Below the pieces are notes generated by a model. It was not told where the DNA came from, searched no databases, and saw only the letters and a program-made list of their open reading frames with translations. Below are positions 16,837 to 47,045 of a DNA stretch of 64,000 nucleotides, one piece after another. The translations under genes and the position numbers were made by a program. The stretch is taken from assembly GCF_030684315.1 (NCBI RefSeq), contig NC_081355.1, forward strand, positions 25,259,316 to 25,323,315, given 5' to 3'. Within the stretch, counting starts at the first letter, position 1. Every line of letters begins with the position of its first letter. Origin of the DNA: Stegostoma tigrinum (Eukaryota).

Positions 16837-16930
16837 GAGATAACAAGGTGTAGAGCTGGATGAACACAGCAGGCCATGCAACATCATAGGAGCAGGAGAG
16901 CTGATGTTTCGGGCCTAGACCTTTCTTCAG
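16837..16930 (-). mobile_element. PLE terminal repeat, solo, tail-less
   Basis: Reverse complement reads CTGAAGAAAGGTCTAGGCCCGAAACATCAGC...TTGTTATCTC. Confidence 0.8.
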
Positions 16931-22800: not shown

Positions 22801-23520
22801 GATTATTTTAGCAGTTTGCTAAATTTCAGTCATTGTCAGATGACCTTTCTATCACTGAAAATTAATTTTACAAATGTGGAGTCACATTCCTTCAACTTCT
22901 AATGGTTGAAACTTGTACTTATTTCATATTTTTTTACTTCTTAATCAAACTTCTGTTTCACATTCTCAGTTTGAAATGCGACTTTGAATTTAAATTGGAT
23001 CAAACTCTACAATACTAACTCATGATTATTCAGTTTGAGTGGTGAAGGAGATGCATAGTTCATTCAGGCCCCTGATTCACTGGATGGTTGTCTGAAATCA
23101 AATTGTACCGCAGACGCCCATAAGGGACTTGTAGGCAAATACAAGTCTAATAAGGCACTACCATTGTCCATTCACCACTTGGAACAATATCCAGCCCAAA
23201 ATTCACTCAGATCTACAAGTGTAGAGGGAATAACTGCCAGATATCTGCTATTTTAGAGTGCTGAATGGGAAGGGTCGCTCTATACTTAGGTCATCCCCCT
23301 GGCAACATACACATGTAGTGAATAAATATATTTTCAGTGGTTTCCGTATTTTCTGGCTGTGATGACTGTGAAGTGTAAATAATGCAGGAATTGCACGTCT
23401 CTATGGCTACAGAAAAAGATGATTTTTCCATGTGGATTTAGAGAGATGGTTGAGCATGGGTATGGTGCTTTGGTAACAGGTCAACAAGCTAGCTATATTG
23501 AAAAGTAGGTCAGAAGAGTG

Positions 23521-23688
23521 AGACAACAAGGTGTAGAGCTGGATGAACACAGCAGGCCAAGCAGCATCAGAGGAGCAGGATAGCTGACATTTTGGGTCTA
23601 GAAGGGTGTAGACCCAAAATGACAGATTTCCTGCTCCTCCGATGCTTCTTGGCCTGCTGTGTTCATCCATCTCTACACCTTGTTATCT
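23521..23688. mobile_element. Non-autonomous PLE fold-back element
   Basis: Two inverted terminal-repeat arms; TSD TAGGTCAGAAGAGTG at 23506-23520 and 23689-23703. Confidence 0.9.
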
Positions 23689-24017
23689 TAGGTCAGAAGA
23701 GTGACATTTTGTGGAGGAAAGATCAGGCAGGAGGTGGTTGAAACTGTCACAAACAGCAACAATGGTGCTCAAGTCAAACATGCATGCAATGTCCAAAAGA
23801 GTTGTATGAGTTGACTATGAGGAAGAAAGCGTGACCATTTCATATTGAATTAAAAATGTTTGTGTGCCTTATGCCAACTACTTACTGTTTCCTCTCACTT
23901 AATTTGACTCGCCAATGATATTTGTCCTGGGCAGGTCTGAAATCAAGTCTTGCACAAGATCCTTAAGCCACATGCAGTGCACAAAAGTAGGAGAGATAGT
24001 GCCATTGTGTACGTCAA

Positions 24018-24295
24018 AGAACAAAGAAAGTTACAGCACAGGAACAGGCCCTTCGGACCTCCAAGCCTGCGCCGATCCAGATCCTCTATCTAAACCTGTT
24101 GCCTATTTTCCAAGGATCTGTATCCCTCTGCTCCCTGCCCATTCATGTATCTGTTTAGATACATCTTAAATGACGCTATCATGCCCACCTCTACCATCTT
24201 TGCTGGCAACGCGTCCCAGGCTCCCACCAACCTCCATGTAAAGAACTTTCCACACATATCTCCCTTCCACTTTCGCCTTGAAACCGTGACCCCTA
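24018..24295 (-). mobile_element. CR1 3' fragment
   Basis: Minus-strand ORF GKFFTWRLVGAWDALP; tail AAGAACAAAGAA. Confidence 0.8.
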
Positions 24296-24355
24296 GTAAC
24301 GTCATGGAAGTTATCTTTGAAATACATACGTTTGCCCATGTAAGCTGAAACTAGT

Positions 24356-24494
24356 TGACGTTTCGGGCCTAGACCCTTTCTAGGCCCAAAACATCAGCTT
24401 TTGTGCTCCCAAGATGATGCTCGGCCTGCTGTGTTCATCCAGCTCCACACTTTGTGATCTCGGATTCTCCAGCATCTGCAGTTCCCATTATCTC
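24356..24494. mobile_element. Non-autonomous PLE fold-back element (short left arm)
   Basis: Inverted hammerhead halves followed by a full arm with tail; TSD TAAGCTGAAA(C/G)TAGT at 24341-24355 and 24495-24509. Confidence 0.85.
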
Positions 24495-26149
24495 TAAGCT
24501 GAAAGTAGTGTTCGGATTCATTCATGTAATGTTCATTTATGTAATGAAATGACAAAATAAGAGGATATCCGGACCTCTTCCAGCAGCCAACAAAGCTCTA
24601 AGATGACTTCCCTGCTAACCATACCTTCCAGAGCCATTGTTTTATGTTCAAAACTGTCTTTTGGACTCTCTGAACATAATAGGTGGGTACCATTTCTTTG
24701 TTAGGACAGTTAGCAACTGGGAAAGGAAATCTTGATGCAAACTTGAGAAACACATTTGGACAGTTGTGCTTCTGACAATTGCAGTTAGGAGGGACTTGTC
24801 AGATGAGGACAGGGATTTTTGGTTAGTCCATTTGAAACAAAGATGTTTGTTTTGTATCTGCCCTTTGGTGAGTATTGATCAAGTATTAGCAGCCTGTGAA
24901 TGGGGCCTAAAACTGGAACTTCTGGCTTAGAGGTACGGACACAACCCATTGAGCCACTAGACATCCATTGAAGGAGAGGTTACTCTAATTTCTACTCATG
25001 ATTGTGGGTTTTTAAATTTTTCATAGGGTTTTATAACCATGAAAAACTTCCATGCCAAGTAAATGCCAGTAATACCCAGTAAAATCTGAAGCAGTGTAAC
25101 CAGTTAGCAATTTGCAGTCCATTGTCATCCTAGTTGATTGAGATTAGGTTGGAAATTTACCATCAGTCTATAGCTATCAGAAATTCATCTTAATTGGCAG
25201 AACATTCAGCAGACATGAAAAGTTATCACTTTATGTCCTCTGTTTCCAGACAATTGATCCACGAGTTGTTTTTCCCCTTTCTCCTTTACTTTGAAAAACA
25301 TAATTTTTGCAGAGATTTGTCTTTTTTGTCTGTGTGTAAGCAAGTGTAATATTAGGGGGTGTCGTTTTAATTACAGATCACTTTTTAAGAGATACCCAGC
25401 ATTTTTCATTTACTTTAAGAGTAAGTTTTGTAATGAATGGATTATTTTGATTTTATCAAAGAATCCTAATAGACAGTTATTTTTGATTGTGGCACTAAAG
25501 TGAAGCAATAGGCTATTTTGGCAGTTGAATCAACAAATGCTGATAATATTGCTGGTGGAGCAATAGATCTTGATTGTAAGATATAGAAGTAGATTTAGGC
25601 CATTTGGTCGATCAAGCTTTCTCCATTATTCGATATGTTTCTCAATCCCATTCTCCTGTCTGCTACCCATAACCTTTGATCCCCTTATTAATTATCAGCG
25701 CATTGCTCCCTTCTGAATCATGACAAATGTTATTCCTTCATGTCATTAGAAATTTCTGGGTTTTCAATATAATTCACTCTTAAGATGTGCCGTGTTATTT
25801 TACATTACCGAGTTAACAAATGCCATACCACAGCATTCATCAAGTACAAGTTAGAATACAACTCCAGTTGGAGAAGCATACCCAATTATTTTCCAACTAG
25901 CTAGCATTTGTATACAAGGTGTCTTTGAGATATTTTTGTACCCACTTGGTCAGAAATGTTATTATACTGGAACAGGTGGGACTTGAACCTGGGCCCCCTG
26001 GTTCAGAGTTAGAAACATCACCCAAGCACCATGACAGCTCTTCAAGGTGGCTTTGACTATTGTTTCTCCATAGCAGGCAAATTTTAGGAAACTATATCGA
26101 ACAAACACTGTAGAAACCTGGTGATCTTTGAGAGTAATGTAACAAGTAG

Positions 26150-26400
26150 AATTAATTTGCTTTCATCTAGCATCTTTCACAATCTCAAGACATTTCAAAG
26201 TGCTTCACAGCCAATGAAGTACCTTTGAAGTGTAGCCAATGCTATAATATAGGAATTGTGGCAGCCAATTTATTCATATTGAGATACTGAGTCAAGTATT
26301 AATGAGGCAAATCACCAGATAATCTATTTTGTGATGCTGATGAAGGGCTAAACAGTGATCACAATACTGGGGAGAGTCCCTCTGAGTCAAGAATGCCACA
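26150..26400 (-). mobile_element. DeuSINE (SacSINE1/AmnSINE1-like) fragment
   Basis: CAAAGTGCTTCACAGCCAATGAAGTAC..TGAAGTGTAG...GGCAGCCAATTT...CCAGATAATCT matches the recalled consensus. Confidence 0.7.
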
Positions 26401-27054
26401 GAATATAAAATGTAAGTCAAAAACATAAATTGAAATTACATTAATTGAAAGAATAGGAGAGGCAGGTGAAAGTTCAAACTTGAGAAAGGCAAGCTTACTG
26501 ATTTGAGGAATTGAATGGTCACATGTGGAGGGATCAATGTCAGGACTTCTGGGGTTGATGTTGGAGGTAAATTGTGCAAATCATTTAAAAAAATTAAAAG
26601 CTGCAGATTTTTTTCCGGGTAGGTGTGCTGAGATCAGCTAAATTACTCAACAAAGAAATTGTGTGAAAGATTTCAATAGGCAATTGTCCAGTTACAAGTT
26701 GGAAATATTGAATATAACAAGAGAAATTCATTGTGGCAATGCCACTGATACATTTTACGTGCAAGCCGGTAAATACTAAGTCATGATGTAAGCTTCCCTT
26801 GAACTCCAGCAAGTGTGAAAGGGAAGCGGAGTATAAAAGATCTGCACGTGTGAAAAAGAAAAGTTTACAATAGAAGTACAAGAAATCTTTTAGCTTTTAT
26901 AGACAGAAGTAAAAAGTACAAAAGCATGAATGCTGAATCTTTAAAAATCACCAGCTAGACTAAATTTTTAGCATGTGGTAGGAACGATCTAGGAAGCACC
27001 CTTGAAGAGGATGTATGAAAGATTTATCAAAAAGATACAAGGGAAGAGGGACTG

Positions 27055-27285
27055 AGAGAGATAATGGGAACTGCAGATGCTGGAGAATCCAAGACAACAA
27101 AATGTGAGGCTGGATGAACACAGCAGGCCAAGCAGCATCCCAGGAGCACAAAAGCTGACGCCTCGGGCCTAGACCCTTCATCAGAGAGCCTCTCTGATGA
27201 AGGGTCTAGGCCCGAGGCGTCAGCTTTTGTGCTCCTGGGATGCTGCTTGGCCTGCTGTGTTCATCCAGCCTCACATTTTGTTGTC
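27055..27285. mobile_element. Non-autonomous PLE fold-back element with mirrored A-to-G changes
   Basis: Perfect inverted arms centred at about 27189; exact TSD AGGGAAGAGGGACTG at 27040-27054 and 27286-27300. Confidence 0.95.
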
Positions 27286-28362
27286 AGGGAAGAGGGACTG
27301 GTTGGTTTTCATTTAAGGAGAGTTAGTGAGCTTCGGAGCTAACCAATGTACAAAACATCCCTTAATATACAATAATTCCCTGAATTGTTTAATGAATCTG
27401 TTTCTGCTCTTTGTTTTCTATCTATCAGTAAATATGCATAAATTGTAAGAATGCACTGCCCTGGCATTCACATTATGTTTACTTCTTTGTAGCAATTAAG
27501 GAAAACTGAACAAAAATATTCAGGATTTAGTTGATTTATAAATGATGATAATTGTAGATAATTGTGTTTGGTATTAAAGCATTAGATCAAGCCAGCAGAG
27601 CTTCGAAGGAATGAACAGAGTAGAAGATGATGTGTGAAACCAATCAGAGAGGATTCTTGTGGCAAACACAACATTGTAACTGTAATGACAGATCCTTTTG
27701 TTAGACGATGAATTGGCAGGAGCAAGAGGACATCACAGTCACAGGGTGCTGCTGAAATTTATTGGAACGATACCAAGGATGATGGGTTTCAATTGTGCAG
27801 AGAGTCAAAAGCTGATGAGTTTGTTCTTGTTAGAACAGAGAAATTAAAATAGAGATTTTACAGGAATCTTCACAATGTGTTTTGATAGAATGATGAAATC
27901 AAAACTATTTTCATTGATAGGATGCTCAATAACTATAAAAACACAGAATTAACGCTATTGGTTCAAGAACCAGAGGAAAGTGAGAAACATTCTTCTTTTA
28001 GACAATGAGTTATTGTGATCTGAAGTGCAATGCAGATGGAATCAGATTCATCAGTAATTTCAAGAAAAGGATGATCAAATTCATTATATTTTACTGTATA
28101 CTTCAAAATGAAAAAGAAAGTAGGAATGTGAGGAAAGAATAAACATGTCTTACCAATTACATAATTCCCATGTTGTCAACTTTTACTGTTACACAATTTG
28201 GCTTTGTAGCTGGATAAGTTTTAGAAGGGTGCTGAAAGTTGTTGGGCAGCTGTTCCTGATGACTTCCAGCGTGTCCAAGGCTGACCATTATGTAGTGAAG
28301 GATAATATTTTGGGCATGTCTTGTACGTGCTGGAAACATGTACACTGGCCAGATCATAATGT

Positions 28363-28451
28363 CATAGAACATAGAACAGTACAGCACAGAACAGGCCCTT
28401 CTGCCCACAATGTTGTGCCGACCATTGATCCTCATGTATGCACCCTCAAAT
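28363..28451 (-). mobile_element. Very short young CR1 3' end
   Basis: Near-identical reverse complement of the 3' UTR starting at about 40583; flanked by AATGTCA repeats. Confidence 0.85.
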
Positions 28452-28549
28452 GTCAGTGGATGAAATGCAGATTCTATCCATTAGATCACATCAATCACTT
28501 TAATGCTCACAGCATTTCTTAAACCTGTATACCTGACTGGAGTTACTTA

Positions 28550-28780
28550 TAGAGTCACAGCAAGGAAATAGACCTTTCAGTCCAACTCATCCAAGTTGAC
28601 CAGATATCCTAAATTAATCTAATACCATTTGCCAGCATTCACCTATATCCCTCTAAAGCCTTCCTATTCACATACCCGTCCAGATGCCTTTTAAATGTTA
28701 TAGTTGAACCATCTCTACCACTTCCTATGGCAGCTCATTCCATTCACACATCACCCTCTGTGTGAAACAAGTTGCCTCAA
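28550..28780 (-). mobile_element. CR1 3' fragment
   Basis: Same family as 5855-6010; reverse strand encodes FHTEGDV/QRV-type end of ORF2. Confidence 0.7.
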
Positions 28781-28939
28781 ATTGTCATTTCAATCAAAAT
28801 GGAGTGGTGCTGGAACTTTGAAAGGACTTACATGATTTGGAAAGACTTCTAATAGCAAATTGCATGCAGTCAAGGGTGCTATTGATGTAGTTACCTTTAG
28901 ACTGAAGAATAAAAACTGGAGCAGAAAGGAGAAACTATT

Positions 28940-29690
28940 CAAGGATGCAAAAGGGGGCCTCTTCTCAGAAGGAGACCACACTCACTTAGCAATCTGAGAG
29001 AAGACTTTGCCATCTTAACCTCAGCCAGGAACAATGCCTATGATGGTTGCTTTCCACCAAAAAGATGGTCATAGATGAGATACTTGAGCAACATGTATCT
29101 TCTCCAAGCAAGACAAGGGTGATACTGCCAGTGGCTGGCAAAGTCATCATGACTTTCACTTTCAACCATCACTATTGTCCCCAGGTTGGTGCCAGAAGCG
29201 TTATCAATGGAATGCTTCTGCGAAATCTCTGAGGCCTCGTGTGTCAGAAAAGGGGACATCACTGTTTTTTCTCTATGCAGAGAAGGGGAGTTAGTTGGGG
29301 TCTTCCCCATTGAGTTGGCAGCCAACCTTCCACGACACTGGGGTAATGCATCTACACGGGGAGACAAACCAGGACCAGAAGGGCTTCCATTCCCTGATAA
29401 TGAGGTTGATGTGTGACTACGCATTCTAGTAGTGGCAACAATACTTTCATCTTCGAGTAATGATACCAGCACCCATTTCTAGCTACCCCACACATGCTTG
29501 CTAGCCCAGTAAACTCCTTGCATATTGACAGTGTATCTACAATGACAACCATGGTGTAACTAGAAACATTGTGCAGTTCACTGATAGAGGACCATTTTGG
29601 AGCCCTTCATGGCATATTATCTGATTTACCCATGTTCTGTTCTGTACTGCAGAACATTGCCATCACGAGGTTGGCACCAGGGCATCAGTG
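28940..29690 (+). pseudogene. Harbinger/PIF DDE transposase (HARBI1-like) remnant
   Basis: Collinear motifs LPVAGKVIMTFTF (about 29124), KGFHSLIMRLMCD (about 29379) and CSVLQNIAITR (about 29638); deletions and frameshifts. Confidence 0.75.
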
Positions 29691-31039
29691 ACCATCTCTG
29701 GGAAAGAAGAAAAAGAACAGGAGGCATTCAGAACAACAGCAACTGAGATGTGTTGTCCATAATCATCTAATAAGACTTATGTTCCTGTATGAAAAGGATT
29801 TCCATTGTTGCTTCACATTTCCCCATCCTTATGTTGCAAATCATTTCAGCATTGTCTGTCTTAAAACTCTGATATAAAACTACAAAAAAACACAAAACAA
29901 CCATTCCGCGTCAATTTTGTACCAGCAGCATTTCTAATAATACAAACAATGCTCAAGTATTTACCCTTGTACTTTTCTCTTTCTAGAAGTGCATTTGCCT
30001 GGCTTGATGCTCTTATGCAGTGCTAGACTAGGACTGTAGCACGGCTGCTTTTTCTCTTTATCAGGAAGACTACTTTTGGCCTTGAAGGATGGTTTTGAAC
30101 CACTCTGAGCCCTGAGGAAGAATATTTGAAATACAGTATCTCTGCTTGGGTGACAGCAGTCTGGGCTGGTCTGCAACAGAAGGGACAGTGGTGGAATAGC
30201 TGTGAATGCTGTCACAGAGAGAGAGGACACTAGGTTCTTGCATCATGGAGACTGTGTCACTTCCCTGGGCAGCTAGATCGAGTAATCTGCTAAAGCACAG
30301 ATTGAGTGCAGTTAAGTCTCCTCTAGCTTTTTAAAACACAAAGGCAATAAGCTAGGTTTGCATGGATCTCATGATCTTACTCTGAGCTTGGCCCACTATA
30401 GTCTTCAGATGTTCGGTTGATTCTACATGTCCTGAAATGGAATCTGAGATGCTGGCCATCTGATGGTTTGTGACGCCTTGACCTTTGAACATTCTCTTGG
30501 AGTTAGCTATCATTAGAATCAGAGAATAGTTGGACAGCACAGAAGGAGGACCATTTGACTTGTTGTATCTGTGCCATGTTTCCACAGCAATTCTGGGTGG
30601 ATGGACACCCATCTCTGCACTTTCAATTTCCTTTCAATAATCAAGAAACTCAACAGCGTAAAAAGTCAACTGATAAAACATAGTCAAACTAGTAAGTATC
30701 CATTATGGCCCATGGAATGGCTGTATCATCCATCAAGCTTCTCTCCACATGCAAACACTTCTTCCACAGAAGGTCCCTCCATGGTCAATGGCTACACTCT
30801 TCTTGAGGTCACCACTCAAGCAACTTGGCATCAGCAAAGCATCAGCCTCAAAATAATATCATGCTTGCTCTTTGCTCAGCTCAGGCAACATTTCAGGTCT
30901 CGAAATATGTATTTTAGAAGCTGAGGGACAGTTAGGAGTTGAGTTTCTGGAAGATCCATTTTTGCTGATAGTAATGCATCTTACATTTCTTTACAGGCTT
31001 TTTAACACTGACATAGAACCAGGCATCGTCTGGGTCTTT

Positions 31040-31937
31040 AATACAGTGTGAAGCTGGAGTACCACCACAGGCCAGGCAGCATCAGAGGAGCAGGAAGGTT
31101 GACGTTTCGGGTCTGGACCTTCTTCAGATATGGGGAGGGGAAAGGGAGCTCTGAAATAAGTAGAGAGAGGATGGGTGGGGCTGGAGAAACTAGGTGGGAT
31201 GGCAATAGGTGAGTGCAGGTAGGCAGTGATGGGGATTGGTCAGTGAAGTGAGCGGAGCGGATAGGTGCTAGAGAAGACGGACAGGTTAAGGAAATGGGGA
31301 TGAGAGGGAGGTAAATAGGAGAGAAGACGCACAGGTCAAGGAGGCGGAGATGAGAGGGAGGCTTGGTCATGGGATGAGGCTGGGCTGGGGAGATTTTGAA
31401 TCTAATAAAAGCCACACTGAGACCATTGGACTGTAGGTTCCCCAGGTGGAATATAAGGTGCTGCTTCTTCAGTTTCCGGGTGGCGTCGTTGTGACACTGG
31501 AGGAGGCCCAGAATGGACATGTCATTCAGGGAGCGGGAGGGGGAATGGAAGTGGTTTGCGACTGGATGGTGTTGTCGTTTGTTGCGAACTGAGCGCAGGT
31601 GCTCTACAAAGCAGTCTCTGAGCCTCTGCTTGGTCTCAGTGATGTAGAGATCCCATCCTTGACCTGTCCATCTTCTCTCCCACCTATCTGCACCTCCAAC
31701 CTCACTGACCAATCCCCACCATTCCTACCTGCACTCACCCATCACCATCCCACCTACCTTCCCCAGCCCCACCCCTCCTCTCCATTTATTTCATAACTCC
31801 TTTCCCCCTCCCTCATTTCGGAAGAAGGCACCTGAACCTAAATGTCAACATCCCTGCCCCTCTGATGCTGCCTGGCCTGTTGTGTTCCTCCAGCTGCACA
31901 CTGTATTACCTCTGACTCAAGCATCAGTAGTTCTTAC
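31040..31937 (-). mobile_element. Older PLE copy with inversion (GIY-YIG fragment and two opposed terminal repeats)
   Basis: Minus strand LYITETKQRLRDCFVEHLRSV...PVANHF; inversion junction at about 31650; TSD CATC(G/T)TCTGGGTCTTT at 31024-31039 and 31938-31953. Confidence 0.9.
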
Positions 31938-32050
31938 CATCTTCTGGGTCTTTGCTGTTTTTAGTGCACAGGATTTTTAGCACTACTTTACTGGTAGGCG
32001 GCTTCTGCATTTTAGCATCCTTTTTAGTTCAGAAAAGCAATGAATCTTTG

Positions 32051-32390: not shown

Positions 32391-32653
32391 ATAGAAAAGT
32401 CCTTTAGGACTGCTTTTGAGCACAAGGTCTTTTGTTATGCTTGACAGGCAGGCAGTCTCTGTGCCTTCGTTTGTGTTTTTTTCAGCATAGAAAGAGGGAC
32501 AGGGAGCTTGTGGTGGCGGTGAGCACTGCAGTGTAAATGTGACAGTGACAGGGGATGTTTACAGGTGGTAAGATGGGACTTCATGGCTAAAAGGACGGAA
32601 TTGGGAGCTCTTCCAGATGTGGTAAAAGTCAAGCAGGCCCTGGTTACTCTGGT

Positions 32654-32788
32654 ATAACAAAGTGTGGAGCTGGATGAACACAGCAGGCTAAGCAGCATCT
32701 TAGGAGCACAATGTTGCTTGGCCTGCTGTGTTCATCCAGCTCCACAATTTGTTATCCCGGATTCTAAAGCATTTGCAGTTCCCGTTAT
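32654..32788. mobile_element. Non-autonomous PLE fold-back element lacking the hammerhead
   Basis: Inverted arms; TSD CCCTGGTTACTCTGGT at 32638-32653 and 32789-32804. Confidence 0.9.
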
Positions 32789-34003
32789 CCCTGGTTACTC
32801 TGGTCTCTAGATGGGAGAGTTGTAGTGATAGCAAGGTCTTAGAAACCTCCAGGGTAATGGACCTCGGGGAAGAGCATGCATTTAATACTGATGTGAACTG
32901 AGATAAGGGAAGCAGAAGAATCATCAAAGTCATCAGGACCTCAAAACAAAAAAAGGGAATGTGAAGGAGAGTGAAGTTAGTGGGTTACAATTGGAGCCTG
33001 CAATGAACACTCATTAACAAAAGGTTGGAACCTCAACTTTTCAGATCAAACGTCAATTGCAGAATGCGTTAACAAAATAGTTGGGGCCACATGTAAAATG
33101 CAAGGACTAAGTTTACTTTGTGGGGGTAGAATTAGCAACATTCTTTTTGAGCCCTGAAAAAAACAGTTGCAGTAATCATGCCTTTACTGATTGAGGAGTG
33201 CTACCCATTGGCCTTCTGATCTCACTCCATAAAATCGCTTCAGAATCATACAGTCCCAACAGTGTGGAAACAGACTATTTGTCCCAATACGCCCACAATG
33301 AAAACCATTATCACTGTGACATGAAGAGTCCACCTTCACTCAAGCTCCAGTACTCCAAGGGACAACACATAATCCGTTGATATATTTTCCAGTTATGAAG
33401 ATGTGCAACTAAATTCTGTACCTATATTAAACAACAAAATCCATCAACTATGTTGTTTTAATAAACACATTTTTGGTTTACTATCAACGCAAAACATATT
33501 CCATAAGGATGTAATAATTGGTTAACAAGCAGAGTCAGCAACATAGAAACACAAATGTCTAGTCCTCTAAAAATCCCTAAAATATACATGCAAACAAACA
33601 CATACTTCAGGAAAAGATAAAACAAAAATTCGCTGTAGCAATTGGCATTCTGACGAAAATTTGACCAATGGGTTATTCTTGAAAGCAAGGAGATCAGCAT
33701 AAAATGCTCCAGAATCTTTCACTTTGATGTTCTGTTTGGTGTGATCTAGTCACAAGTCATGCACAATTGTCTTTGAAGTTTTGCAGCCACGGCTTGCTAA
33801 GGAAATACAGTATTGATGTTTCTTCAATTACTCTTTCAAGAGTATAAATAAGCTTCACCCTGAACTCAACAAAAGGATTTTCTTTTCAGAAATGAGTGAT
33901 CAACCGGGCAGCTTGTTTTTAGCATGCTTTTCTATAAAACATCTTATTCTAGCCATGTTTTTCTCCAGGTCAGCTAAACAAAACAAGCCCCTTTCCCAGC
34001 TAA

Positions 34004-34219
34004 CAAAGTGTGGAGCTGGATGAACACAGCAGGCCAAGCAGCATCTTAGGAGCACAAAAGCTGATGTTTCGGGCCGAGACCCTTCATCCGAAAAGCTTTA
34101 CCCAAAACATCAGCTTTTGTGCTCCTGAGATGCTGCTTGGCCTGCTGTGTTCATCCAGCTCCGCACTTTGTTATCTCGGACTCTCCAGCATCTGCAGTTC
34201 CCATTATCTCTGATACAAT
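34004..34219. mobile_element. Non-autonomous PLE fold-back element
   Basis: Inverted arms, right arm with extended tail (...ATCTCTGATACAAT); TSD CCCCTTTCC(C/A)AGCTAA at 33988-34003 and 34220-34235. Confidence 0.9.
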
Positions 34220-34994
34220 CCCCTTTCCAAGCTAATCACTTTTCAAACCTGCCCCAACAAGAGGCCTACTACAAAGCAAGCTGTTAACACTAGTCAAGTT
34301 ATTAGTAGGAAGCCTTGTTAAAAGAAGTACCACAGGTATCTCCACAAAACTTGAAATAAGTCAATTTGCCACAATTTTTAATCCTTAAGTCCTCAATGCA
34401 ATATTAATCTTTGTAACACTTGTACCTGTGGAGAAATAAAAGACCACTTTTAAACTTGTCTCGGGGTAAAATATGAACACAGCAAAAATACTTTTAAAAA
34501 TACTCATTCACAATCATTTTCATACTCTCTGTACATGTAACCTATACAAGTATCTCTGATAACTACTTAGTATGTCGACAATTCAAGCAAGGTTACATAG
34601 TTGACAAAACATCCATGATGACATTGTTCACCTGGTGGGAAAACAAATTTTATTAGATATTGCTGTAATAGAAATGCCCACCAAAACGGTGTGGCATTTT
34701 TGCTTTTAAAATTTTCACACACAAAGGCTGATGGGGTTCTGATGAAGAGTCACTGAACTTAAACTGTTACTTTTGCTTTCTCCTCACAAGCATTATTAGT
34801 TCTTATAAATAATTAGACCATTGCTCATGTAATTAGATATAAACCATTGCCACACATTGCTGCTAAGTAAAACTCTAATCCCCTACGTACAAATAGAGAA
34901 AATAGGGTATTGACAAAGGTATAAAAGAACTGCAAAGTCAATTCAGTAACTTTTGCTTCCCAGTTCTGATGTTAATATGATCCTGTCTCACCTA

Positions 34995-37862: not shown

Positions 37863-38079
37863 CAATTGCTCTGTCTCTTTCAAATCACCGAGCCTTTCTG
37901 TGAATACCAGAGAAGCTACAAGTTTTGCTCTTCCAAATCATTCTCGAGGGCTAAATCAACTATTCCTATAAGCTCGTAGAGAGAGATAATGGGAACTGCA
38001 GATGCTGGAGATTCCAAGATAATAAAATGTGAGGCTGGATGAACACAGCAGGCCAAGCAGCATCTCAGGAGCACAAAAG

Positions 38080-38111
38080 CTGACGTTTCGGGCCTAGACC
38101 CTTCATCAGAG
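38080..38111 (-). ncRNA. Minimal hammerhead ribozyme motif
   Basis: Reverse complement CTCTGATGAAGGGTCTAGGCCCGAAACGTCAG; intact core. Confidence 0.75.
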
Positions 38112-38277
38112 AGGGGGATGGGGGGAGGGAACTGGAATAAATAGGGAGAGAGGGGGAGGCGGACCGAAGATGGAGAGCAAAGAAGATAGGTGGAGAGGGT
38201 GTAGGTGGGGAGGTAGGGAGGAGATAGGTCAGTCCAGGGAAGACGGACAGGTCAAGGAGGTGGGATGAGGTTAGTAC

Positions 38278-39096
38278 GCCCTTGACCGCGTCTCCCGCAT
38301 TTCCCGCGACACATCCCTCACACCCCGCCCCCGCCACAACCGCCCCAAGAGGATCCCCCTCGTTCTCACACACCACCCTACCAACCTCCGGATACAACGC
38401 ATTATCCTCCGACACTTCCGCCATTTACAATCCGACCCCACCACCCAAGACATTTTTCCATCCCCACCCCTGTCTGCTTTCCGGAGAGACCACTCTCTCC
38501 GTGACTCCCTTGTTCGCTCCACACTGCCCTCCAACCCCACCACACCCGGCACCTTCCCCTGCAACCGCAGGAAATGCTACACTTGTCCCCACACCTCCTC
38601 CCTCACCCCCATCCCAGGCCCCAAGATGACATTCCACATTAAGCAGAGGTTCACCTGCACATCTGCCAATGTGGTATACTGCATCCACTGTACCCGGTGC
38701 GGCTTTCTCTACATTGGGGAAACCAAGCGGAGGCTTGGGGACCGCTTTGCAGAACACCTCCGCTCAGTTCGCAACAAACAACTGCACCTCCCAGTCGCAA
38801 ACCATTTCCACTCCCCCTCCCATTCTCTTGATGACATGTCCATCATGGGCCTCCTGCACTGCCACAATGATGCCACCCGAAGGTTGCAGGAACAGCAACT
38901 CATATTCCGCCTGGGAACCCTGCAGCCATATGGTATCAATGTGGACTTCACCAGTTTCAAAATCTCCCCTTCCCCCACTGCATCCCTAAACCAGCCCAGT
39001 TCATCCCCTCCCCCCACTGCACCACACAACCAGCCCAGCTCTTCCCCCCCACCCACTGCATCCCAAAACCAGTCCAACCTGTCTCTGCCTCCCTAA
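38278..39096 (+). CDS. PLE ORF C-terminus, 5'-truncated: Cys linker and GIY-YIG endonuclease
   Basis: Open frame with CNRRKCYTCPH and NVVYCIHCTRCGFLYIGETKRRLGDRFAEH; matches the 43794-44765 copy. Confidence 0.9.
   Translation, partial: ALDRVSRISRDTSLTPRPRHNRPKRIPLVLTHHPTNLRIQRIILRHFRHLQSDPTTQDIFPSPPLSAFRRDHSLRDSLVRSTLPSNPTTPGTFPCNRRKCYTCPHTSSLTPIPGPKMTFHIKQRFTCTSANVVYCIHCTRCGFLYIGETKRRLGDRFAEHLRSVRNKQLHLPVANHFHSPSHSLDDMSIMGLLHCHNDATRRLQEQQLIFRLGTLQPYGINVDFTSFKISPSPTASLNQPSSSPPPTAPHNQPSSSPPPTASQNQSNLSLPP
38966..39080 (+). repeat. Three imperfect ~39-bp tandem units at the PLE ORF end
   Basis: CCCACTGCA..AACCAGCCCAG repeated, encoding PTASLNQPSSS / PTAPHNQPSSS / PTASQNQSN. Confidence 0.8.
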
Positions 39097-39097
39097 C

Positions 39098-40681
39098 TGA
39101 TGTACTGAAAATTTTGTCAAACATTAAGATTGACAAGTCGCCAGGCCCGGATCAGATTTGTCCTCGGCTGCTTTGGGAAGCGAGAAATGCAATTGCTTCG
39201 CCACTTGCGAAGATCTTTGCATCCTCGCTCTCCACTGGAGTCGTACCTGAGGACTGGAGAGAGGCAAATGTAATTCCTCTCTTCAAGAAAGGAAATAGGG
39301 AAATCCCCGGCAATTATAGACCGGTAAGTCTCACGTCTGTCGTCTGCAAGGTGTTAGAAAGGATTCTGAGGGATAAGATTTATGACCATCTGGAAGAGCA
39401 TGGCTTGATCAAATACAGTCAACACGGCTTTGTGAGGGGTAGGTCATGCCTTACAAACCTTATCGAGTTTTTTGAGGATGTGACTAGTAAGGTTGATGAG
39501 GGTCAAGCTGTGGATGTGGTGTATATGGACTTCAGTAAGGCATTTGATAAGGTTCCCCATGGAAGGCTCATTCAGAAGGTCAGGAGGAATGGGATACAGG
39601 GGAACTTAGCTGCTTGGATACAGAATTGGCTGGCCAACAGAAGACAGCGAGTGGTAGTAGAAGGAAAATATTCTGCCTGGAAGTCAGTGGTGAGTGGGGT
39701 TCCACAGGGCTCTGTCCTTGGGCCTCTACTGTTTGTAATTTTTATTAATGACTTGGACGAGGGAATTGAAGGATGGGTCAGCAAGTTTGCAGACGACACA
39801 AAGGTCGGAGGTGTCGTTGACAGTGTAGAGGGCTGTTGTAGGCTGCAGCGGGACATTGACAGGATGCAGAGATGGGCTGAGAGGTGGCAGATGGAGTTCA
39901 ACCTGGATAAATGCGAGGTGATGCATTTTGGAAGGTCGAATTTGAAAGCTGAGTACAGGATTAAGGATAGGATTCTTGGCAGCGTGGAGGAACAGAGGGA
40001 TCTTGGTGTGCAGATACATAGATCCCTTAAAATGGCCACCCAAGTGGACAGGGTTGTTAAGAAAGCATATGGTGTTTTGGCTTTCATTAACAGGGGGATT
40101 GAGTTTAAGAGTCGTGAGATCTTGTTGCAGCTCTATAAAACTTTGGTTAGACCGCACTTGGAATACTGCGTCCAGTTCTGGGCGCCCTATTATAGGAAAG
40201 ATGTGGATGCTTTGGAGAGGGTTCAGAGGAGGTTTACCAGGATGCTGCCTGGACTGGAGGGCTTATCTTATGAAGAGAGGTTGACTGAGCTCGGTCTCTT
40301 TTCATTGGAGAAAAGGAGGAGGAGAGGGGACCTAATTGAGGTATACAAGATAATGAGAGGCATAGATAGAGTCGATAGCCAGAGACTATTTCCCAGGGCA
40401 GAAATGGCTAGCACGAGGGGTCATAGTTTTAAGCTGGTTGGTGGAAAGTATAGAGGGGATGTCAGAGGCAGGTTCTTTACGCAGAGAGTTGTGAGAGCAT
40501 GGAATGCGTTGCCAGCAGCAGTTGTGGAAGCAAGGTCATTGGGGTCATTTAAGAGACTGCTGGACATGCATATGGTCACAGAAATTTGAGGGTGCATCCA
40601 TGAGGATCAATGGTCGGCACAACATTGTGGGCTGAAGGGCCTGTTCTGTGCTGTACTGTTCTATGTTCTATGTTCTATGTT
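39098..40681 (+). mobile_element. Young 5'-truncated CR1 LINE inserted in the PLE
   Basis: Uninterrupted ORF2 half, (GTTCTAT)n tail and flanking CTAAC duplication; the empty site is visible in the 43441-44768 copy. Confidence 0.95.
39114..40589 (+). CDS. CR1 ORF2 reverse transcriptase domain (endonuclease missing)
   Basis: 491-aa open frame with KSPGPD, NYRPVSLTS, YMDFSKAFDKVPH, GVPQGSVLGP and KFADD. Confidence 0.95.
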   Translation: MSNIKIDKSPGPDQICPRLLWEARNAIASPLAKIFASSLSTGVVPEDWREANVIPLFKKGNREIPGNYRPVSLTSVVCKVLERILRDKIYDHLEEHGLIKYSQHGFVRGRSCLTNLIEFFEDVTSKVDEGQAVDVVYMDFSKAFDKVPHGRLIQKVRRNGIQGNLAAWIQNWLANRRQRVVVEGKYSAWKSVVSGVPQGSVLGPLLFVIFINDLDEGIEGWVSKFADDTKVGGVVDSVEGCCRLQRDIDRMQRWAERWQMEFNLDKCEVMHFGRSNLKAEYRIKDRILGSVEEQRDLGVQIHRSLKMATQVDRVVKKAYGVLAFINRGIEFKSREILLQLYKTLVRPHLEYCVQFWAPYYRKDVDALERVQRRFTRMLPGLEGLSYEERLTELGLFSLEKRRRRGDLIEVYKIMRGIDRVDSQRLFPRAEMASTRGHSFKLVGGKYRGDVRGRFFTQRVVRAWNALPAAVVEARSLGSFKRLLDMHMVTEI

Positions 40682-40907
40682 CTAACCGGTTCTTCCTCTC
40701 ACCCATCCCTTCCTCCCACCCCCAGCCGCACCCCCAGCTACCTACTAACCTCATCCCACCTCCTTGACCTGTCCGTCTTCCCTGGACTGACCTATCCCCT
40801 CCCTACCTCCCCACCTACACCCTCTCCACCTATCTTCTTTGCTCTCCATCTTCGGTCCGCCTCCCCCTCTCTCCCTATTTATTCCAGTTCCCTCCCCCCA
40901 TCCCCCT

Positions 40908-40939
40908 CTCTGATGAAGGGTCTAGGCCCGAAACGTCAG
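40908..40939 (+). ncRNA. Minimal hammerhead ribozyme motif
   Basis: CTGATGA (40910-40916), A, stem II GGGT-CTAG-GCCC, GAAA (40930-40933), CGTC; predicted cleavage after C40937. Confidence 0.75.
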
Positions 40940-41899
40940 CTTTTGTGCTCCTGAGATGCTGCTTGGCCTGCTGTGTTCATCCAGCCTCACATTTTATTAT
41001 TCCTATAAGCTACCTATTGACTACGCCAACAGTTACCATTCCAGCCATTAGGTCACCCTCTAGGTGTATCTAAAATAAAAGCATTTACTCCCTGCTAACA
41101 CCATGTACTAAAACTTTGGCAATCAAGTTGCTCACATGAGGATAATTAGTTTGAGTGGCTCCTGTAATTTTGTGCATGACTATAGAATTACTTGTCATTT
41201 GAGGAATATCTTGTTGACAAGAATTCCCTTTGGTTCTCATGTACCTTGTTTACTTGCCTTGCACACACAACAGTTTATATTTGATCTCACTGCTGTTGTC
41301 AGAGGCACAGCTTAGTATGTGGTACTGCTGGCTGGTTGTACTTCTTTCTCTGCACTGCCTTTACGTATGCCTATACCTCACAACTTCCAGAAATTTGTAC
41401 AAACATGTCCCACCTTATGACAATGGTAAAACTTCAGACATCTCTTCCACCCTTAGCACTCTCGTTTCATGCCTGAGGAAGTCTTTCGGGAATCTTCACA
41501 ACTGTCCCTTCTTGTCCCTGGTTATTTTTCTTATTTCTTGTATTTGTGATTGTGATGAGAAACGGATTGGGTTTGTGGACCAGGTTACAATTGTCAAACA
41601 CTTCAGCTGCCTTTCTCGTTGTTGCAAGCTCTTGGTTTTCTTTATGAGATTCTATCAATTTATACAATGAAGTCTTAAATTCTTCTCGGAAAAGGATCTC
41701 ATGTGCAGTCTCTACCGTCAATGCCTTCACCCAATTAGCAATGTTATTTTACTTTACCCTCTCAAATTCTATATAAGTCTGCTCTAGCTACTTAAGGGTA
41801 TACAACATTCCTGCCTGCCAGTCACAGGGAGAAACTTGTATGCACTAAGAATAACCTTAATTGCCACTTTGTAATCTATACCCAAACCAAGCTATTCCA

Positions 41900-43305
41900 C
41901 TTCGGTTACATCACAGGCATCTACATGACAATGTGGAAAATTGTCCAGATATGTCCTGTACACAAAAGCATCCAATACGGCCAATTACTGCCTCATCAAT
42001 CTACTCTACTGGTTATCAGTAAAGTGATTGAAGTTGTTAGCAATAATGCTATCATGTAGCGTCCGTTCAGCAATAATCAGCTCAGTGACTCCCACTTTGG
42101 GTTCTGCCAGGGCCACACTAATGCTTTGGTTCAAAAATAGACAAAAGAACTGAATTCCAGAGGTGAGGTGAGAGTGATAACCCTCAAAATCAAGGCTGCA
42201 TTTGACTTTGTATGGGTTTGAGGATTCCTAGCAAAACTGGAATCAATGGGAAAGAGGGAGCAGAATCTCCACTGGTTGCACTCATACCTGGCGCATAGGA
42301 AAATGGTTGTGGTTTTGGAAGGTCAGTCATCTCACCTCAAGACATTCCTGCATGAGTTCCTCTGGATAGTGTCCTAGGACCAATCATTTTCAGCTGCTTC
42401 ATCAATGACCTTCCATCCATCATAAGGTCAGAAGTGGGAATGTTTGCTGATGATTGCACAGTGCTCAACACCATTCACAACTCCTCAGACACTGAAGCAG
42501 ACCATGTTCAATTGCAACAATATCTGGACAAGATTCAGGTTCGGTCTTACAAGTGGCAAGTAACATTCATGCTACACAAATGCCAGGCAATGACCGTCTC
42601 TGAAAAGAGACAATCTAACCACAGCCTCTTGACATTCAATGGCGTTACCATCACTGAATCTTCAATTGTCAACACCCTGGGGGTTCCCATTGACTGGAAA
42701 CTCAATAGGACTCACCACATAAACATAGTGGCTACAAGAATAGCTCAGAGGCTTGGAATACTGCTGCAAGTAACTCCTCCAAGCCTGCCCACCATCTGCA
42801 AGGTATAAGAAAGGAGTGTGGTGGAACTTGCTTGAAAGAGGCAGACCTATCAACACAGAAGAAACTTGACACCATCCAGGACCAAGGAGCCCACTTCATT
42901 GGCACCACAGCCACAAACATCCAGTCCCTCCACCACCAACTCTCAGTTTAAGCAGGATGTACTATTTACTAGATGCACAGCAGAAATTCACCAAATATCC
43001 TTAAATTGTGCCTTCCAATCCTGCAACAACTTCTATCTAGAAGGGCAAGAGTAGCAGAAAAATGGAAATACCACCTACAGGCTACATGCTAAGTTATTCA
43101 ATATCCTTACTTGGAAATATATTGTTGTGCTTTCACTTTTGCCTTGATAAGATCCTGGCATGCCATTCCTAAGGGTGTTGAGCTAATCTACAGCAGTTAA
43201 GGACTGCAGCAATTGAAGAAGACAGCTCACCACCACTGTTTCAAGGACAACTTAGAATAAATGCTGGCTTACTTGTGACACTCACCTCCTACACATGAAA
43301 AAAGA
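41900..43305 (+). mobile_element. CR1-clade LINE (second family), decayed RT and 3' end
   Basis: MFADDCTVLNTIHNSSDTEA...KWQVTF; homologous to 6015-7478. Confidence 0.85.
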
Positions 43306-43539
43306 TGAAACCTCCTCAGAAAGCAAGCCATTACTTCATCAGCCATGTCTGACAGCCTGCTGTACATGAGTAGTGCTCAGCCTCCTCTTGCCATCTTGCA
43401 TACTAAGCTATCTTTGAAAAGAAATCAGAAATACCTCTGCGAGAGATGATGGGAACTGCAGATGCTGGAGATTCCAAGATAATAAAATGTGAGGCTGGAT
43501 GAACACAGCAGGCCAAGCAGCATCTCAGGAGCACAAAAG

Positions 43540-43571
43540 CTGACGTTTCGGGCCTAGACCCTTCATCAGAG
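43540..43571 (-). ncRNA. Minimal hammerhead ribozyme motif
   Basis: Same intact core as 40908-40939. Confidence 0.75.
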
Positions 43572-43793
43572 AGGGGGATGGGGGGAGGGAACTGGAATAA
43601 ATAGGGAGAGAGGGGGAGGCGGACCGAAGATGGAGAGTAAAGAAGATAGGTGGAGAGGGTGTAGGTGGGGAGGTAGGGAGGGGATAGGTCAGTCCAGGGA
43701 AGACGGACAGGTCAAGGAGGTGGGATGAGGTTAGTAGGTAGCTGGGGGTGCGGCTTGGGGTGGGAGGAAGGGATGGGTGAGAGGAAGAACCGG

Positions 43794-44765
43794 TTAGGGA
43801 GGCAGAGACAGGTTGGACTGGTTTTGGGATGCAGTGGGTGGGGGGGAAGAGCTGGGCTGGTTGTGTGGTGCAGTGGGGGGAGGGGATGAACTGGGCTGGT
43901 TTAGGGATGCAGTGGGGGAAGGGGAGATTTTGAAACTGGTGAAGTCCACATTGATACCATATGGCTGCAGGGTTCCCAGGCGGAATATGAGTTGCTGTTC
44001 CTGCAACCTTCGGGTGGCATCATTGTGGCAGTGCAGGAGGCCCATGATGGACATGTCATCAAGAGAATGGGAGGGGGAGTGGAAATGGTTTGCGACTGGG
44101 AGGTGCAGTTGTTTGTTGCGAACTGAGCGGAGGTGTTCTGCAAAGCGGTCCCCAAGCCTCCGCTTGGTTTCCCCAATGTAGAGAAAGCCGCACCGGGTAC
44201 AGTGGATGCAGTATACCACATTGGCAGATGTGCAGGTGAACCTCTGCTTAATGTGGAATGTCATCTTGGGGCCTGGGATGGGGGTGAGGGAGGAGGTGTG
44301 GGGACAAGTGTAGCATTTCCTGCGGTTGCAGGGGAAGGTGCCGGGTGTGGTGGGGTTGGAGGGCAGTGTGGAGCGAACAAGGGAGTCACGGAGAGAGTGG
44401 TCTCTCCGGAAAGCAGACAGGGGTGGGGATGGAAAAATGTCTTGGGTGGTGGGGTCGGATTGTAAATGGCGGAAGTGTCGGAGGATAATGCGTTGTATCC
44501 GGAGGTTGGTAGGGTGGTGTGTGAGAACGAGGGGGATCCTCTTGGGGCGGTTGTGGCGGGGGCGGGGTGTGAGGGATGTGTCGCGGGAAATGCGGGAGAC
44601 GCGGTCAAGGGCGTTCTCAATCACCGTGGGGGGGAAGTTGCGGTCCTTAAAGAACTTGGACATCTGGGATGTGCGGGAGTGGAATGTCTTATCGTGGGAG
44701 CAGATGCGGCGGAGGCGGAGGAATTGGGAATAGGGGATGGAATTTTTGCAGGAGGGTGGGTGGGA
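43794..44765 (-). CDS. PLE ORF C-terminal 323 aa: RT thumb, Cys linker, GIY-YIG
   Basis: SHPPSCKNSIPYSQFLRLRRICS (PLE RT thumb) is in frame with RIPLVLTHHP, CNRRKCYTC and VY..YIGET; no stops. Confidence 0.92.
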   Translation of the reverse strand, partial: SHPPSCKNSIPYSQFLRLRRICSHDKTFHSRTSQMSKFFKDRNFPPTVIENALDRVSRISRDTSLTPRPRHNRPKRIPLVLTHHPTNLRIQRIILRHFRHLQSDPTTQDIFPSPPLSAFRRDHSLRDSLVRSTLPSNPTTPGTFPCNRRKCYTCPHTSSLTPIPGPKMTFHIKQRFTCTSANVVYCIHCTRCGFLYIGETKRRLGDRFAEHLRSVRNKQLHLPVANHFHSPSHSLDDMSIMGLLHCHNDATRRLQEQQLIFRLGTLQPYGINVDFTSFKISPSPTASLNQPSSSPPPTAPHNQPSSSPPPTASQNQSNLSLPP

Positions 44766-45572
44766 GCACAGAAATACCTCTGCACCATTTTGGCCAAATT
44801 TTCAGAGGCATGCATAAATTTCAGCAGCTCCCCATTGGGTCTTGGTTTAGACTCAGATATTTACTTGTCAGAATGCTTCTTGGTCTCAGAGGCCTTTTAT
44901 TTATTTCCAGCTATTTAAACTGATATTCTCTCTCGCTACTCTTTCCCTCAACTTAATTTCTAGATCTAAATTCTTAAATTCTCTTTATTTTTTACTTCTC
45001 GCTCTGAAGTGCTATGTCTTTTTCTTCCCCCTCCCCCTGCAGTGCTGTTTATCCTCCTTTTTCTGCTCTGTGCAATTCTTCTCTTTGAAGTCTAAGTTTT
45101 TAATTCCCATTTATTTTTCCCATTTAACCAGCTTTGCAATTGAATTCTTTCAATCTCTATTAACTCACCATCTGACTGGATTCACCATTCTTCCAATTCA
45201 AAAGTTGTGCTATTGCCTCAGTTACATTGCTGTCCTAGCCTTTATTTTTAGCTCTCATTCCGAATTCTCGGCCAAACCTTGGTTATTCTTGCAAGTCATT
45301 CAGGAATAAATTTCTGTGCAGAAAATTCTTAGTGTTTGCCAAAGCCATTTTGGTATAATACTGCTCAATAAACCTAACGTATTTCCTACAACCCTTCCAA
45401 ATATTGACACCCAGCTTTCAATTAAAGTTTGCATGAGGTATCCTATTGTGAGCACCAGTTATGTTCTGACCAATATTGAGGAGTGCGCTATTGCTCTAGT
45501 CCTACAACTTCACAGGTCACAACTTAGAATACTTTTTCTGTTTATCAAGAAAACCAATTAGGTAACTTATCC

Positions 45573-45706
45573 AAGGTAACAAGGCCTAGAGCTGGATGAA
45601 CACGGCAGGCCAGGCAGCATCAGAGGAGCAGGAAAGCTGAGTTTCGGGCCTCGACCCTCTACACCTTGTTATCTCAGATTCTCCAGCATCTATAGTTCCT
45701 ACTATC
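45573..45706. mobile_element. Non-autonomous PLE fold-back element
   Basis: Minus arm joined to a short plus arm with tail; flanking repeat TAGGTAACTTA at 45559-45569 and 45707-45717. Confidence 0.85.
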
Positions 45707-46569
45707 TAGGTAACTTACCTATTTCCTTTTTTAAACAAGATCTATTAGCTGAGCTTCTTAATAAATACTATTTTATCAAAACAAAACTTATTCAGTAAAT
45801 ATGCAAGAATCAGTCAAGATTGGTTTCCTGAAGAAAAATATACATTTTTCTCAGTGGGTATTCTTGAAGACAAAACAATCAAGTGTAGAATATTCTGGAG
45901 TTTATTGCTGCAAGGTTGTGGCTAATGTGATCAAGCCACTGAAAATGCAGGGTGGTCTATGCAGTTTGCCCTGACACCACCTTGTTTCCCTGAGTGAAAT
46001 CAATGGAGTGAGGTCCAATCACATATGTGGTAGCTATTGAATGTTCTGCTGGACCTGTATCTTCAAGGCAGTTGTGACTCTTTCCACAGAGATAATCAGG
46101 TGCTCACATGCCAGAGCCATGGTTGTAATGGAAACTGTTTGAAGGACTTGTCCATCTTTTATTTCAAAATCTACTAAATGCCTCTGGAACACCATCCTCA
46201 TGTTCTTTCACCACATCTTACAGGTTCAGCACTCCAATTATATTCAAGAACACCACTTTTCTTGGAGCTCTCAGTCTGGTTGTTAGTAGGCTTTTCCAAA
46301 AATGAAACAGAGGGAAGGACTGATTATGATGGAAACATCCGAGATCAGTTAGTTTTCATGCAGGAGTAGGAGAGGTGGTCCTCAATAAGGAGTACAAAGC
46401 TTAGAGAAAAGGAAGGGCTCATAGTTCCTGAAAATGAGGGGGATGTCAGACCCTGAATTGACACATGGTGGGTGATGCTGAGGGCTGTAGTCCATCATCC
46501 TCGGTGAGATGGATATTCAGTGGCAGAGTTAGAGTCAATGATATCTGTCTGAGTGTGAGTAGCAGAGAA

Positions 46570-47045
46570 AAGATGGAGACACTTATCTTTGTGGAATGTA
46601 GGATATCATTGACTTTCTTTCTGCACTGCTGGGTGTCCCTTTCCAGAGTGGGCACAACACTGACCTCTGCTGTTATCTCTGTCCAGGATGGCTGAGTCTG
46701 TTGGTGTAGCCTCTTGCTGCAGTCATTAGGTAAAAAGGCTGAGAGAGAGAAAATGGGAGCTGCAGATGCTGGAGAATCCAAGATAACAAAGTATGAAGCT
46801 GGATGAACACAGCAGGCCAAGCAGCATCTTAGGAGCACAGAAACTGACATTTTGGGCCTCTCTGATGAAGGGTCTAGGCCCGAAACGTCAGCTTTTGTGT
46901 ACCTAAGATGCTGCTTGGCCTGCTGTGTTCATCCAGCTTCATACTTTGTTATCTAGGTAAAAAAACTGACCCCTCATTACCCCATCTACCAGTAACTCAT
47001 CACTTTACTCTAGGAAGTGTGAAGCAAATTTCTTTTGCGCCACAT
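46570..47045 (-). pseudogene. Myb/SANT-like DNA-binding gene remnant of a Harbinger transposon
   Basis: WTEITAEVSVVPTLERDTQQCRKKVNDILHSTK is a trihelix/MSANTD-type pattern; interrupted by a PLE fold-back. Confidence 0.7.
46743..46953. mobile_element. Non-autonomous PLE fold-back element with intact hammerhead (46862-46889)
   Basis: Inverted arms share the variant CTTCATAC; TSD TAGGTAAAAA(GG/AA)CTGA at 46727-46742 and 46954-46969. Confidence 0.9.

Follow-up and report, generated by a model that had tools for sequence, protein, structure and literature searches.

Penelope-like elements (PLEs) carrying a GIY-YIG endonuclease (EN+ PLEs) are described, in the sections of Craig et al. 2021 covered here (PMC8557442), as inserting with 5' truncation and target-site duplications (TSDs) of variable length; an inverted, truncated copy adjoins their 5' end, and a tail of 30-40 bp is often one-sided. 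Their terminal repeat (pLTR) contains a hammerhead, and a CX2-5CXXC linker between the reverse transcriptase (RT) and endonuclease domains, tied there to microsatellite targeting, marks Neptune and Nematis; the origin of inverted and tandem PLE insertions is called undefined in the same sections. In the parts of Arkhipova et al. 2013 considered (PMC3846280), Pen2, Pen2a and Pen3a of Adineta vaga likewise combine head-to-head inverted pLTRs, an optional 31-bp tail, a TSD and one empty-site check, but their TSDs measure 8-10 bp, and the insertions are proposed there to form by self-priming with an antisense template. For the purified protein PAc (Poseidon, from Anolis), the main text of Frangieh et al. 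2024 (PMC11167929) reports that it cleaves and extends both strands, that two RT start sites delimit the tail and that a dimer is predicted. Here we describe a 64-kb stretch of DNA from the shark Stegostoma tigrinum (the window, to which all positions refer) that contains hairpins made of two opposed PLE ends. These hairpins are two 5'-truncated, head-to-head PLE ends, and we consider it probable that each was built in one integration, with both cut ends of the target priming reverse transcription.

The inverted truncated copy, the one-sided tail and the TSD are published PLE features, and the layout of the insertions is known; an earlier note on this DNA had stated that PLEs can insert with an inverted pLTR, and this is indeed in print (PMC8557442 and PMC3846280, in the parts covered). 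The additions made here are the proof of an empty site, a narrow and long TSD that is echoed in a distant family, and an asymmetry between the arms. In contrast to the sections of PMC8557442 considered, the TSDs measure 14-16 bp (0-2 mismatches) at nine of the ten insertions originally noted (11 bp at 45573), the targets are not microsatellites, and both arms are often shorter than 140 nt, leaving a pure hairpin; those sections hold no rule for which arm is tailed. In the main text of PMC11167929, a word search finds neither "duplication" nor "stagger", and inverted arms are not discussed. Our literature search, with key older work and Repbase/Dfam outside it, returned nothing on shark PLE insertions or on 14-16-bp PLE TSDs. 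The narrow TSD length may be new relative to the "variable" of the literature, as may the observations that the tailed arm is the shorter of a pair and that the hammerhead is where 14 of 22 arms come to an end.

Hairpin insertions, target-site duplications and an empty site

A BLAST search of the window with the youngest long copy (43441-44767, sense on the minus strand) as the reference for arm mapping located 13 insertions of the family, which cover 8% of the window. An inverted 5'-truncated copy adjoins the 5' end in nine of the 13, and in all of these two-armed insertions an antisense arm is followed by a sense arm, with the element 3' ends facing outward. Arm reach (5' reach) is counted in nucleotides from the tail end of the element. 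Duplications were scored as length minus 3 per mismatch with a threshold of at least 9, and their edges are accurate to 1-4 nt, as target and element-end bases overlap. The tabulation of junctions and TSDs is confined to copies within the window.

Seven short elements of 130-230 bp had been described in the earlier note as made only of two opposed copies of the terminal repeat. All seven are real in position and size, but the description does not hold for the left arm of 24356 and for the filler in 34004. Insertion 23521 (23522-23688, 167 bp) belongs to an older subfamily, lacks a tail on both arms (reach left/right 118/124) and has a 16-bp TSD without mismatches (23506-23521 and 23689-23704; span 23506..23704). 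Insertion 24356 (24356-24494, 139 bp; span 24341..24509) has a 15-bp TSD with one mismatch, a tailed right arm and a left arm of ~23 nt (24356-24378) that derives from the hammerhead region rather than the element end (reach 123/118). The insertion at 27055-27285 (231 bp; span 27040..27300) has a perfect 15-bp TSD, a tailed left arm and zero differences between its arms across 96 columns (reach 133/134); its predicted fold of -214 kcal/mol merely restates the inverted repeat. At 32654-32788 (135 bp; span 32638..32804) the TSD is a perfect 16 bp and the right arm is tailed (reach 96/83). The insertion at 34004-34219 (216 bp; span 33988..34235) has a tailed right arm, ~9 nt of filler at its centre (reach 130/112) and a 16-bp TSD with one mismatch; the best duplication by script is 21 bp with two mismatches, extending into element-like bases. 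The old insertion 45573 (45570-45706, 137 bp; span 45559..45717) has a tailed right arm of only ~54 nt (reach 122/54) and a TSD of 11 bp exact, or 13 matches in 14 columns with one gap. Finally, 46743-46953 (211 bp; span 46727..46969) has a tailed left arm (reach 115/134) and a 16-bp TSD with two mismatches.

The longer copies also carry the 14-16-bp TSDs ascribed to them, and two of the three are themselves two-armed and inverted. The longer and older insertion 31040-31937 (TSD 16 bp, one mismatch; span 31024..31953) has an untailed left arm with a reach of 744 and an internal deletion, a tailed right arm with a reach of 286, and a GIY-YIG remnant on the minus strand. The young, long insertion 37975-40997 (TSD 14 bp, no mismatch; span 37961..41011) combines an inverted tailed arm of 296 nt with an untailed sense arm of ~1175 nt, interrupted by a long interspersed nuclear element (LINE). 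The young copy 43441-44768 (-) is 5'-truncated and one-armed, with a perfect 15-bp TSD (span 43426..44783). Three further family copies lie beyond 23506..46969, each a single arm: 15460..15581 (+), tailed and with no TSD found; 16838..16930 (-), untailed and with no convincing TSD; and 58167-58293 (+), tailed, with a duplication of 9 bp exact, or 15 columns if a 3-nt gap is allowed (span 58155..58301). For 15460 and 16838, neither a flanking duplication nor a distant partner copy of the flanks was found. A long G run at 15367-15398, 60-90 nt upstream of the arm at 15460, is a possible weak spot of the assembly.

True flank pairs score at least 9 in 11 of the 13 copies, none of 156 mismatched left/right flank pairs scores above 7, and, of 1000 pairs of positions drawn at random, two score at least 9. 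The long flanking duplications noted earlier (15-16 bp, and 11 bp at 45573) are confirmed and exceed the mismatched-flank controls.

Sequencing-run searches returned four runs of the same species (share 0.77-0.84) and nine of one related species (0.11-0.13). Contigs were compared over 22900-34700 for three of the nine related-species runs (one per study, three studies), whose pieces reach 30885, and for one of the four same-species runs. Contig joints spanning kilobases between element ends were set aside as contigs bridging neighbouring copies, and summed contig depth (1e5-4e6 over element bins against tens over unique bins) was not taken as copy number. In each of the three related-species runs a single contig joins 27041 directly to 27288, at record positions that follow one another (1127/1128, 1130/1131 and 483/484). 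The 246 bp missing there correspond exactly to the insert (231 bp) and one copy of the duplication (15 bp), and a single 15-bp target is present. Because the empty site has one copy of the target, the duplication at 27055 was made by the insertion. The insertion at 23521 is common to the related species, whose contigs enter both of its arms by ~20 nt. Same-species contigs pass from unique flank into the element at 23521, 24356, 27055, 31040, 32654 and 34004.

Relationship to endonuclease-bearing Penelope-like elements

As judged from sequence, the hairpin arms are 5'-truncated ends of a Neptune/Nematis-type EN+ PLE. An open, C-terminal remnant of a reading frame at 43794..44765 (-) contains a thumb-region motif, a CX4CXXC linker and a GIY-YIG endonuclease. 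The linker, CNRRKCYTC, fits the CX2-5CXXC definition, and VVYCIHCTRC..YIGET, with two cysteines within the core, aligns with the conserved GIY-YIG columns; the Pfam GIY-YIG match (E 8e-4) scores 20.2, under the curated cut-off of 22.6. Among named relatives, the best matches to the protein come from Stegostoma tigrinum (93%) and Rhincodon typus (88%). All copies in the window are truncated short of the RT core, while longer homologues (33-65% identity) mostly have RVT_1 N-terminal to the match; neither a full-length copy nor a tandem copy with a direct pLTR was found within the window. None of the nine listed target sites is a microsatellite, a target hypothesised for the linker and a tendency rather than a strict criterion of the Neptune clade.

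The element ends in two 3' end classes 36 nt apart, which define an optional tail (43441..43476 (-)). Upstream of it, 129-102 nt from the tail end, lies a minimal hammerhead-like core (43542..43569 (-); CUGAUGA...GAAACGUC), which is present in most arms too. By motif alone the terminal repeat thus contains a putative minimal hammerhead. Rfam at the gathering threshold gives no hits in the window, hammerhead included, and the hammerhead fold does not appear in the minimum-free-energy fold, with the 150-nt element end folding no better than shuffles (z -0.03). In the parts of Cervera and de la Pena 2014 covered (PMC4209133), type-I hammerheads of PLEs have the same extra base before helix II and tiny palindromic helix III; the candidate in the shark differs in a helix I of apparently only 2 bp and in lacking a gathering hit. 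The likeness to PAc, in the main text of PMC11167929, extends to two RT start sites bounding a tail, cleavage and extension of both strands, a hammerhead in the pLTR and the predicted dimer; PAc differs in belonging to the Poseidon clade and in having no linker motif.

Junctions, tails and the route of integration

The earlier note held that each hairpin has its own central junction, and no two of the nine two-arm junctions in the window are the same; the arms overlap by 0-3 nt or, in 34004, are separated by filler. Nine left-arm/right-arm joints on same-species contigs decode to nine additional combinations. The arms sort by diagnostic bases into about four sequence subfamilies; both arms of a hairpin match the same subfamily where diagnostic positions overlap, and in the seven pairs with rankable overlap the sister arm ranks 1-5 (mostly 1-2) among ~20 arms. 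De novo formation at integration, as originally proposed, is supported by these distinct junctions, by the four or so subfamilies and by the empty site at 27055 with its single target. Shared junctions, which had been named as counter-evidence, would be a weak refutation, since a very abundant family in which truncations concentrate at 110-136 nt would yield identical junctions repeatedly without amplification of a unit.

The two arms differ in a consistent manner. Among the nine two-arm insertions, eight have one tail, one has none and none has two (P ~0.02 against independent choice). In all eight the tailed arm reaches less far than its partner (118<123, 133<134, 286<744, 83<96, 112<130, 296<1175, 54<122 and 115<134; post hoc sign test 0.008, rising to 0.016 if the near-tie at 27055 is left out). 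Furthermore, 14 of 22 arms end at 110-136, including the single arms 15460, 16838 and 58167; the 22 include both long arms of 31040. This zone spans the CUGAUGA and stem II of the hammerhead, upstream of the cleavage site, and arms may end there because the RT stalls, because cDNA ends are joined there or because the RNA itself begins there. We also considered the cleavage site itself (102/101) as a rule for where arms start or stop, and rejected it: no 5' end lies there, and only the left arm of 24356 has a 3' end nearby. That end, at 98-101, is 1-4 nt from the predicted cleavage site and possibly reflects, in a single case, priming on a ribozyme-cut RNA end.

Under the reading we prefer, the enzyme of the element would cut the two target strands ~14-16 bases apart. 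The break would leave 3' overhangs, a polarity suggested by the outward-facing 3' ends of the arms together with the direct duplication. Element RNA would be reverse-transcribed from both cut ends, with one primer presumably beginning at each of the two RT start sites; the cleavage and extension of both strands by purified PAc fit this reading (PMC11167929, main text). Synthesis would frequently stop early, 110-136 nt in, at the hammerhead, and the two cDNA ends would be joined by 0-3 nt of microhomology or by filler. In twin priming of L1, the second target strand likewise primes a second cDNA and microhomology is found at the inversion junction. In L1, however, the second primer pairs at an internal site and little sequence is common to the two parts, whereas here both arms copy the same terminal region. 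The fixed nick stagger that the earlier note read from the TSDs is a fair proposal, with a basis of only nine TSDs here and three in distant relatives.

In a more specific version, which we put forward tentatively and without expecting it to prevail, a single RNA is copied from both primers in convoy, synthesis from the untailed start running ahead of synthesis from the tailed start. The presence of only one tail, the lesser reach of the arm that bears it and the shared variants would all follow from this arrangement. They would also follow from a tandem transcript whose 5' repeat is tailed and whose 3' repeat is not. The variants come from 27055, where the tailed arm differs from the young copy of its subfamily by five A>G changes on the sense strand and one A>T. 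All five A>G changes fall in the shared part and are present in both arms, and one matches the wider consensus. They fit one template, possibly A-to-I edited, copied twice (n=1), and also fit a variant source locus or later conversion between the arms. Two of the five fall in the GAAA core of the hammerhead.

A metagenome alignment search, of which the best 80 of 501 loci were considered (18 inverted hits among them), yielded one invertebrate-host family whose hammerhead resembles that of the shark element and whose 3' ends (35 ends) fall into two classes separated by ~50 nt. Six complete two-arm pairs remained after the exclusion of hits cut by contig ends (e.g. L006, L027, L062, L063 and L073) or unrelated to the element end; the loci had been chosen for a reading frame on the sense arm, which biases arm length. 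No pair among the complete loci has two tails. Three of them (L036, L056 and L076), whose proteins are 37-54% identical to that of the window, have exact TSDs of 14, 13 and 15-16 bp and a short inverted arm that is tailed; among 180 control pairs in a wide search, none reaches 13 and four reach 10-12. An exact 21-nt pattern from the repeat had no match in the metagenome, viral and prokaryote collections. The TSD overlaps the untailed element end by 4 nt in L036 (2285-2288) and by 6 of 8 nt in L076 (4554-4561), which hints at primer-template pairing at initiation.

A wider proposal is doubtful in our view, if possible: that Neptune-type PLEs integrate as a rigid dimer, which nicks the strands ~15 nt apart, from sharks to the invertebrate-host family (<55% protein identity), and carries two RTs in convoy 36-50 nt apart on one RNA. 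If true, this one geometry would explain how long the TSD is, why only one arm is tailed and why that arm is the shorter, as well as the shared private variants and the inverted PLE structure.

Several observations weigh against the preferred reading, integration primed from both cut ends. The sample is small, comprising one 64-kb window and one empty site; two of the 13 copies in the window lack a TSD, and two more have only 9-11 bp exact. Insertion 23521 is tail-free on both arms, the left arm of 24356 does not begin at either of the RT start sites, and 43441 is a long tailed arm without a partner. The fit of 34004 to the short-arm rule requires its centre to be filler, since an aligner can extend the tailed arm to 136. 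The nine contig joints have a depth of ~700-1600 against ~18 for unique contigs; contig depth is not copy number, and high-depth fold-back joints could include multi-copy junctions. Among the distant loci, only three of six complete pairs have a TSD of at least 13 bp: L044, with the layout of L036, L056 and L076, has a 9-bp match within the control range, L029 contains a shark-like mini-hairpin (496-619) without a TSD, and L030, also without a TSD, has its tail on the long arm, contrary to the short-tailed-arm rule. The arm asymmetry makes the unsolved integration step of PLEs testable, and a very abundant shark family with long, easily scored TSDs offers a large natural record of the integration reaction.

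The first alternative is fold-back self-priming, in which a strand bends back at a palindrome and serves as its own template for the second arm. Self-priming has been proposed for Adineta Penelopes, on an antisense template (PMC3846280, parts covered). The near-perfect symmetry of 27055 (133/134), with identical arms and private changes in common, is what this mechanism would give, and many junctions lie in or beside the near-palindromic stem II of the hammerhead (121-110). However, most junctions are asymmetric and overlap by only 0-3 nt. The tailed arm, having the shorter reach, cannot have arisen by fold-back copying of its untailed partner; in 24356, 31040, 32654, 37975, 45573 and 46743 the short arm has a tail that the long arm lacks, which would need extra trimming. 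PAc, moreover, extends both strands in vitro (PMC11167929, main text). We consider fold-back unlikely.

Next, and likewise unlikely, stands a long two-armed landing of the kind seen at 37975, followed by collapse to a mini-hairpin as the inverted and unstable centre was lost; the variety of junctions would then date from after insertion. Long inverted repeats tend to suffer deletions, long two-armed copies are present (31040 and 37975), and the left arm of 31040 is internally deleted. Yet the species-specific insertion at 27055 is already short with no differences between its arms, and single-arm copies end at the same place (122, 128 and 129) with no hairpin to collapse.

We regard as very improbable that the hairpins are autonomous mobile units from a few founders, whether DNA MITEs (miniature inverted-repeat transposable elements) or hairpin RNAs retrotransposed whole. 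The shape does resemble a MITE, as the term "MITE-like" of the earlier note conveyed, and some fold-back-like joints lie on high-depth same-species contigs. In the parts of PMC8969392 considered, DNA MITEs share with these elements short length, inverted repeats, a flanking duplication and high copy number. The term does not carry further: the hairpins have no apparent transposase link, their ends are homologous to a GIY-YIG retroelement, and the tail, one-sided in eight of the nine two-arm insertions, keeps the terminal inverted repeats from being flush. No structure is common to the copies in the window; the window junctions and the nine decoded contig joints, all distinct, and the roughly four subfamilies are not what a single amplified MITE would give. 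One-armed and 3-kb copies share the same TSD length, and the arms of 27055 carry identical sense-strand changes, not opposite-strand ones. Nor do the hairpins match non-LTR retrozymes, which are tandem, direct hammerhead-bearing units (bioRxiv 10.64898/2026.07.22.740005, parts covered), as the arms are inverted and single. For annotation, the hairpins should be masked as PLE stumps, not as MITEs or microRNA-like genes; perfect hairpins could be sources of double-stranded RNA.

That the duplications pre-existed, arose by chance or are assembly artefacts is scarcely credible: an empty allele was examined at only one of ten sites, but there it has one copy, which refutes the idea for 27055, the control scores fall short of those observed, and same-species contigs join unique flank to six elements.

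Neighbouring elements and minor observations

The LINE within the 37975 copy is a later passenger and not part of the PLE family. Its RT fragment (39098..40681 (+); RVT_1 E 2.7e-35) has an uninterrupted frame, a short tandem 3' end and a 5-nt overlap with PLE sequence, and relatives of greater age are found at 29-840 and 50200-51580. This LINE may resemble shark CR1-type LINEs. Decayed copies of another LINE-type RT family are found at 6014-6823 (RVT_1 E 7.5e-9) and 42356-43049.

The copies 37975-40997 and 43441-44768, 2.4 kb apart, are 99.9% identical over 825 nt and form long inverted repeats; they are either very recent or homogenised by conversion. In young copies (37975-37980, 27055 and 46743) extra GA-type bases lie between the TSD and the tail end, either because initiation slipped or because the start site lay slightly further on. 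Among the distant loci, L009 has a degenerate tandem-repeat region (86-5325 and 7057-8220), with units in multiples of ~130 nt, flanking its PLE match.

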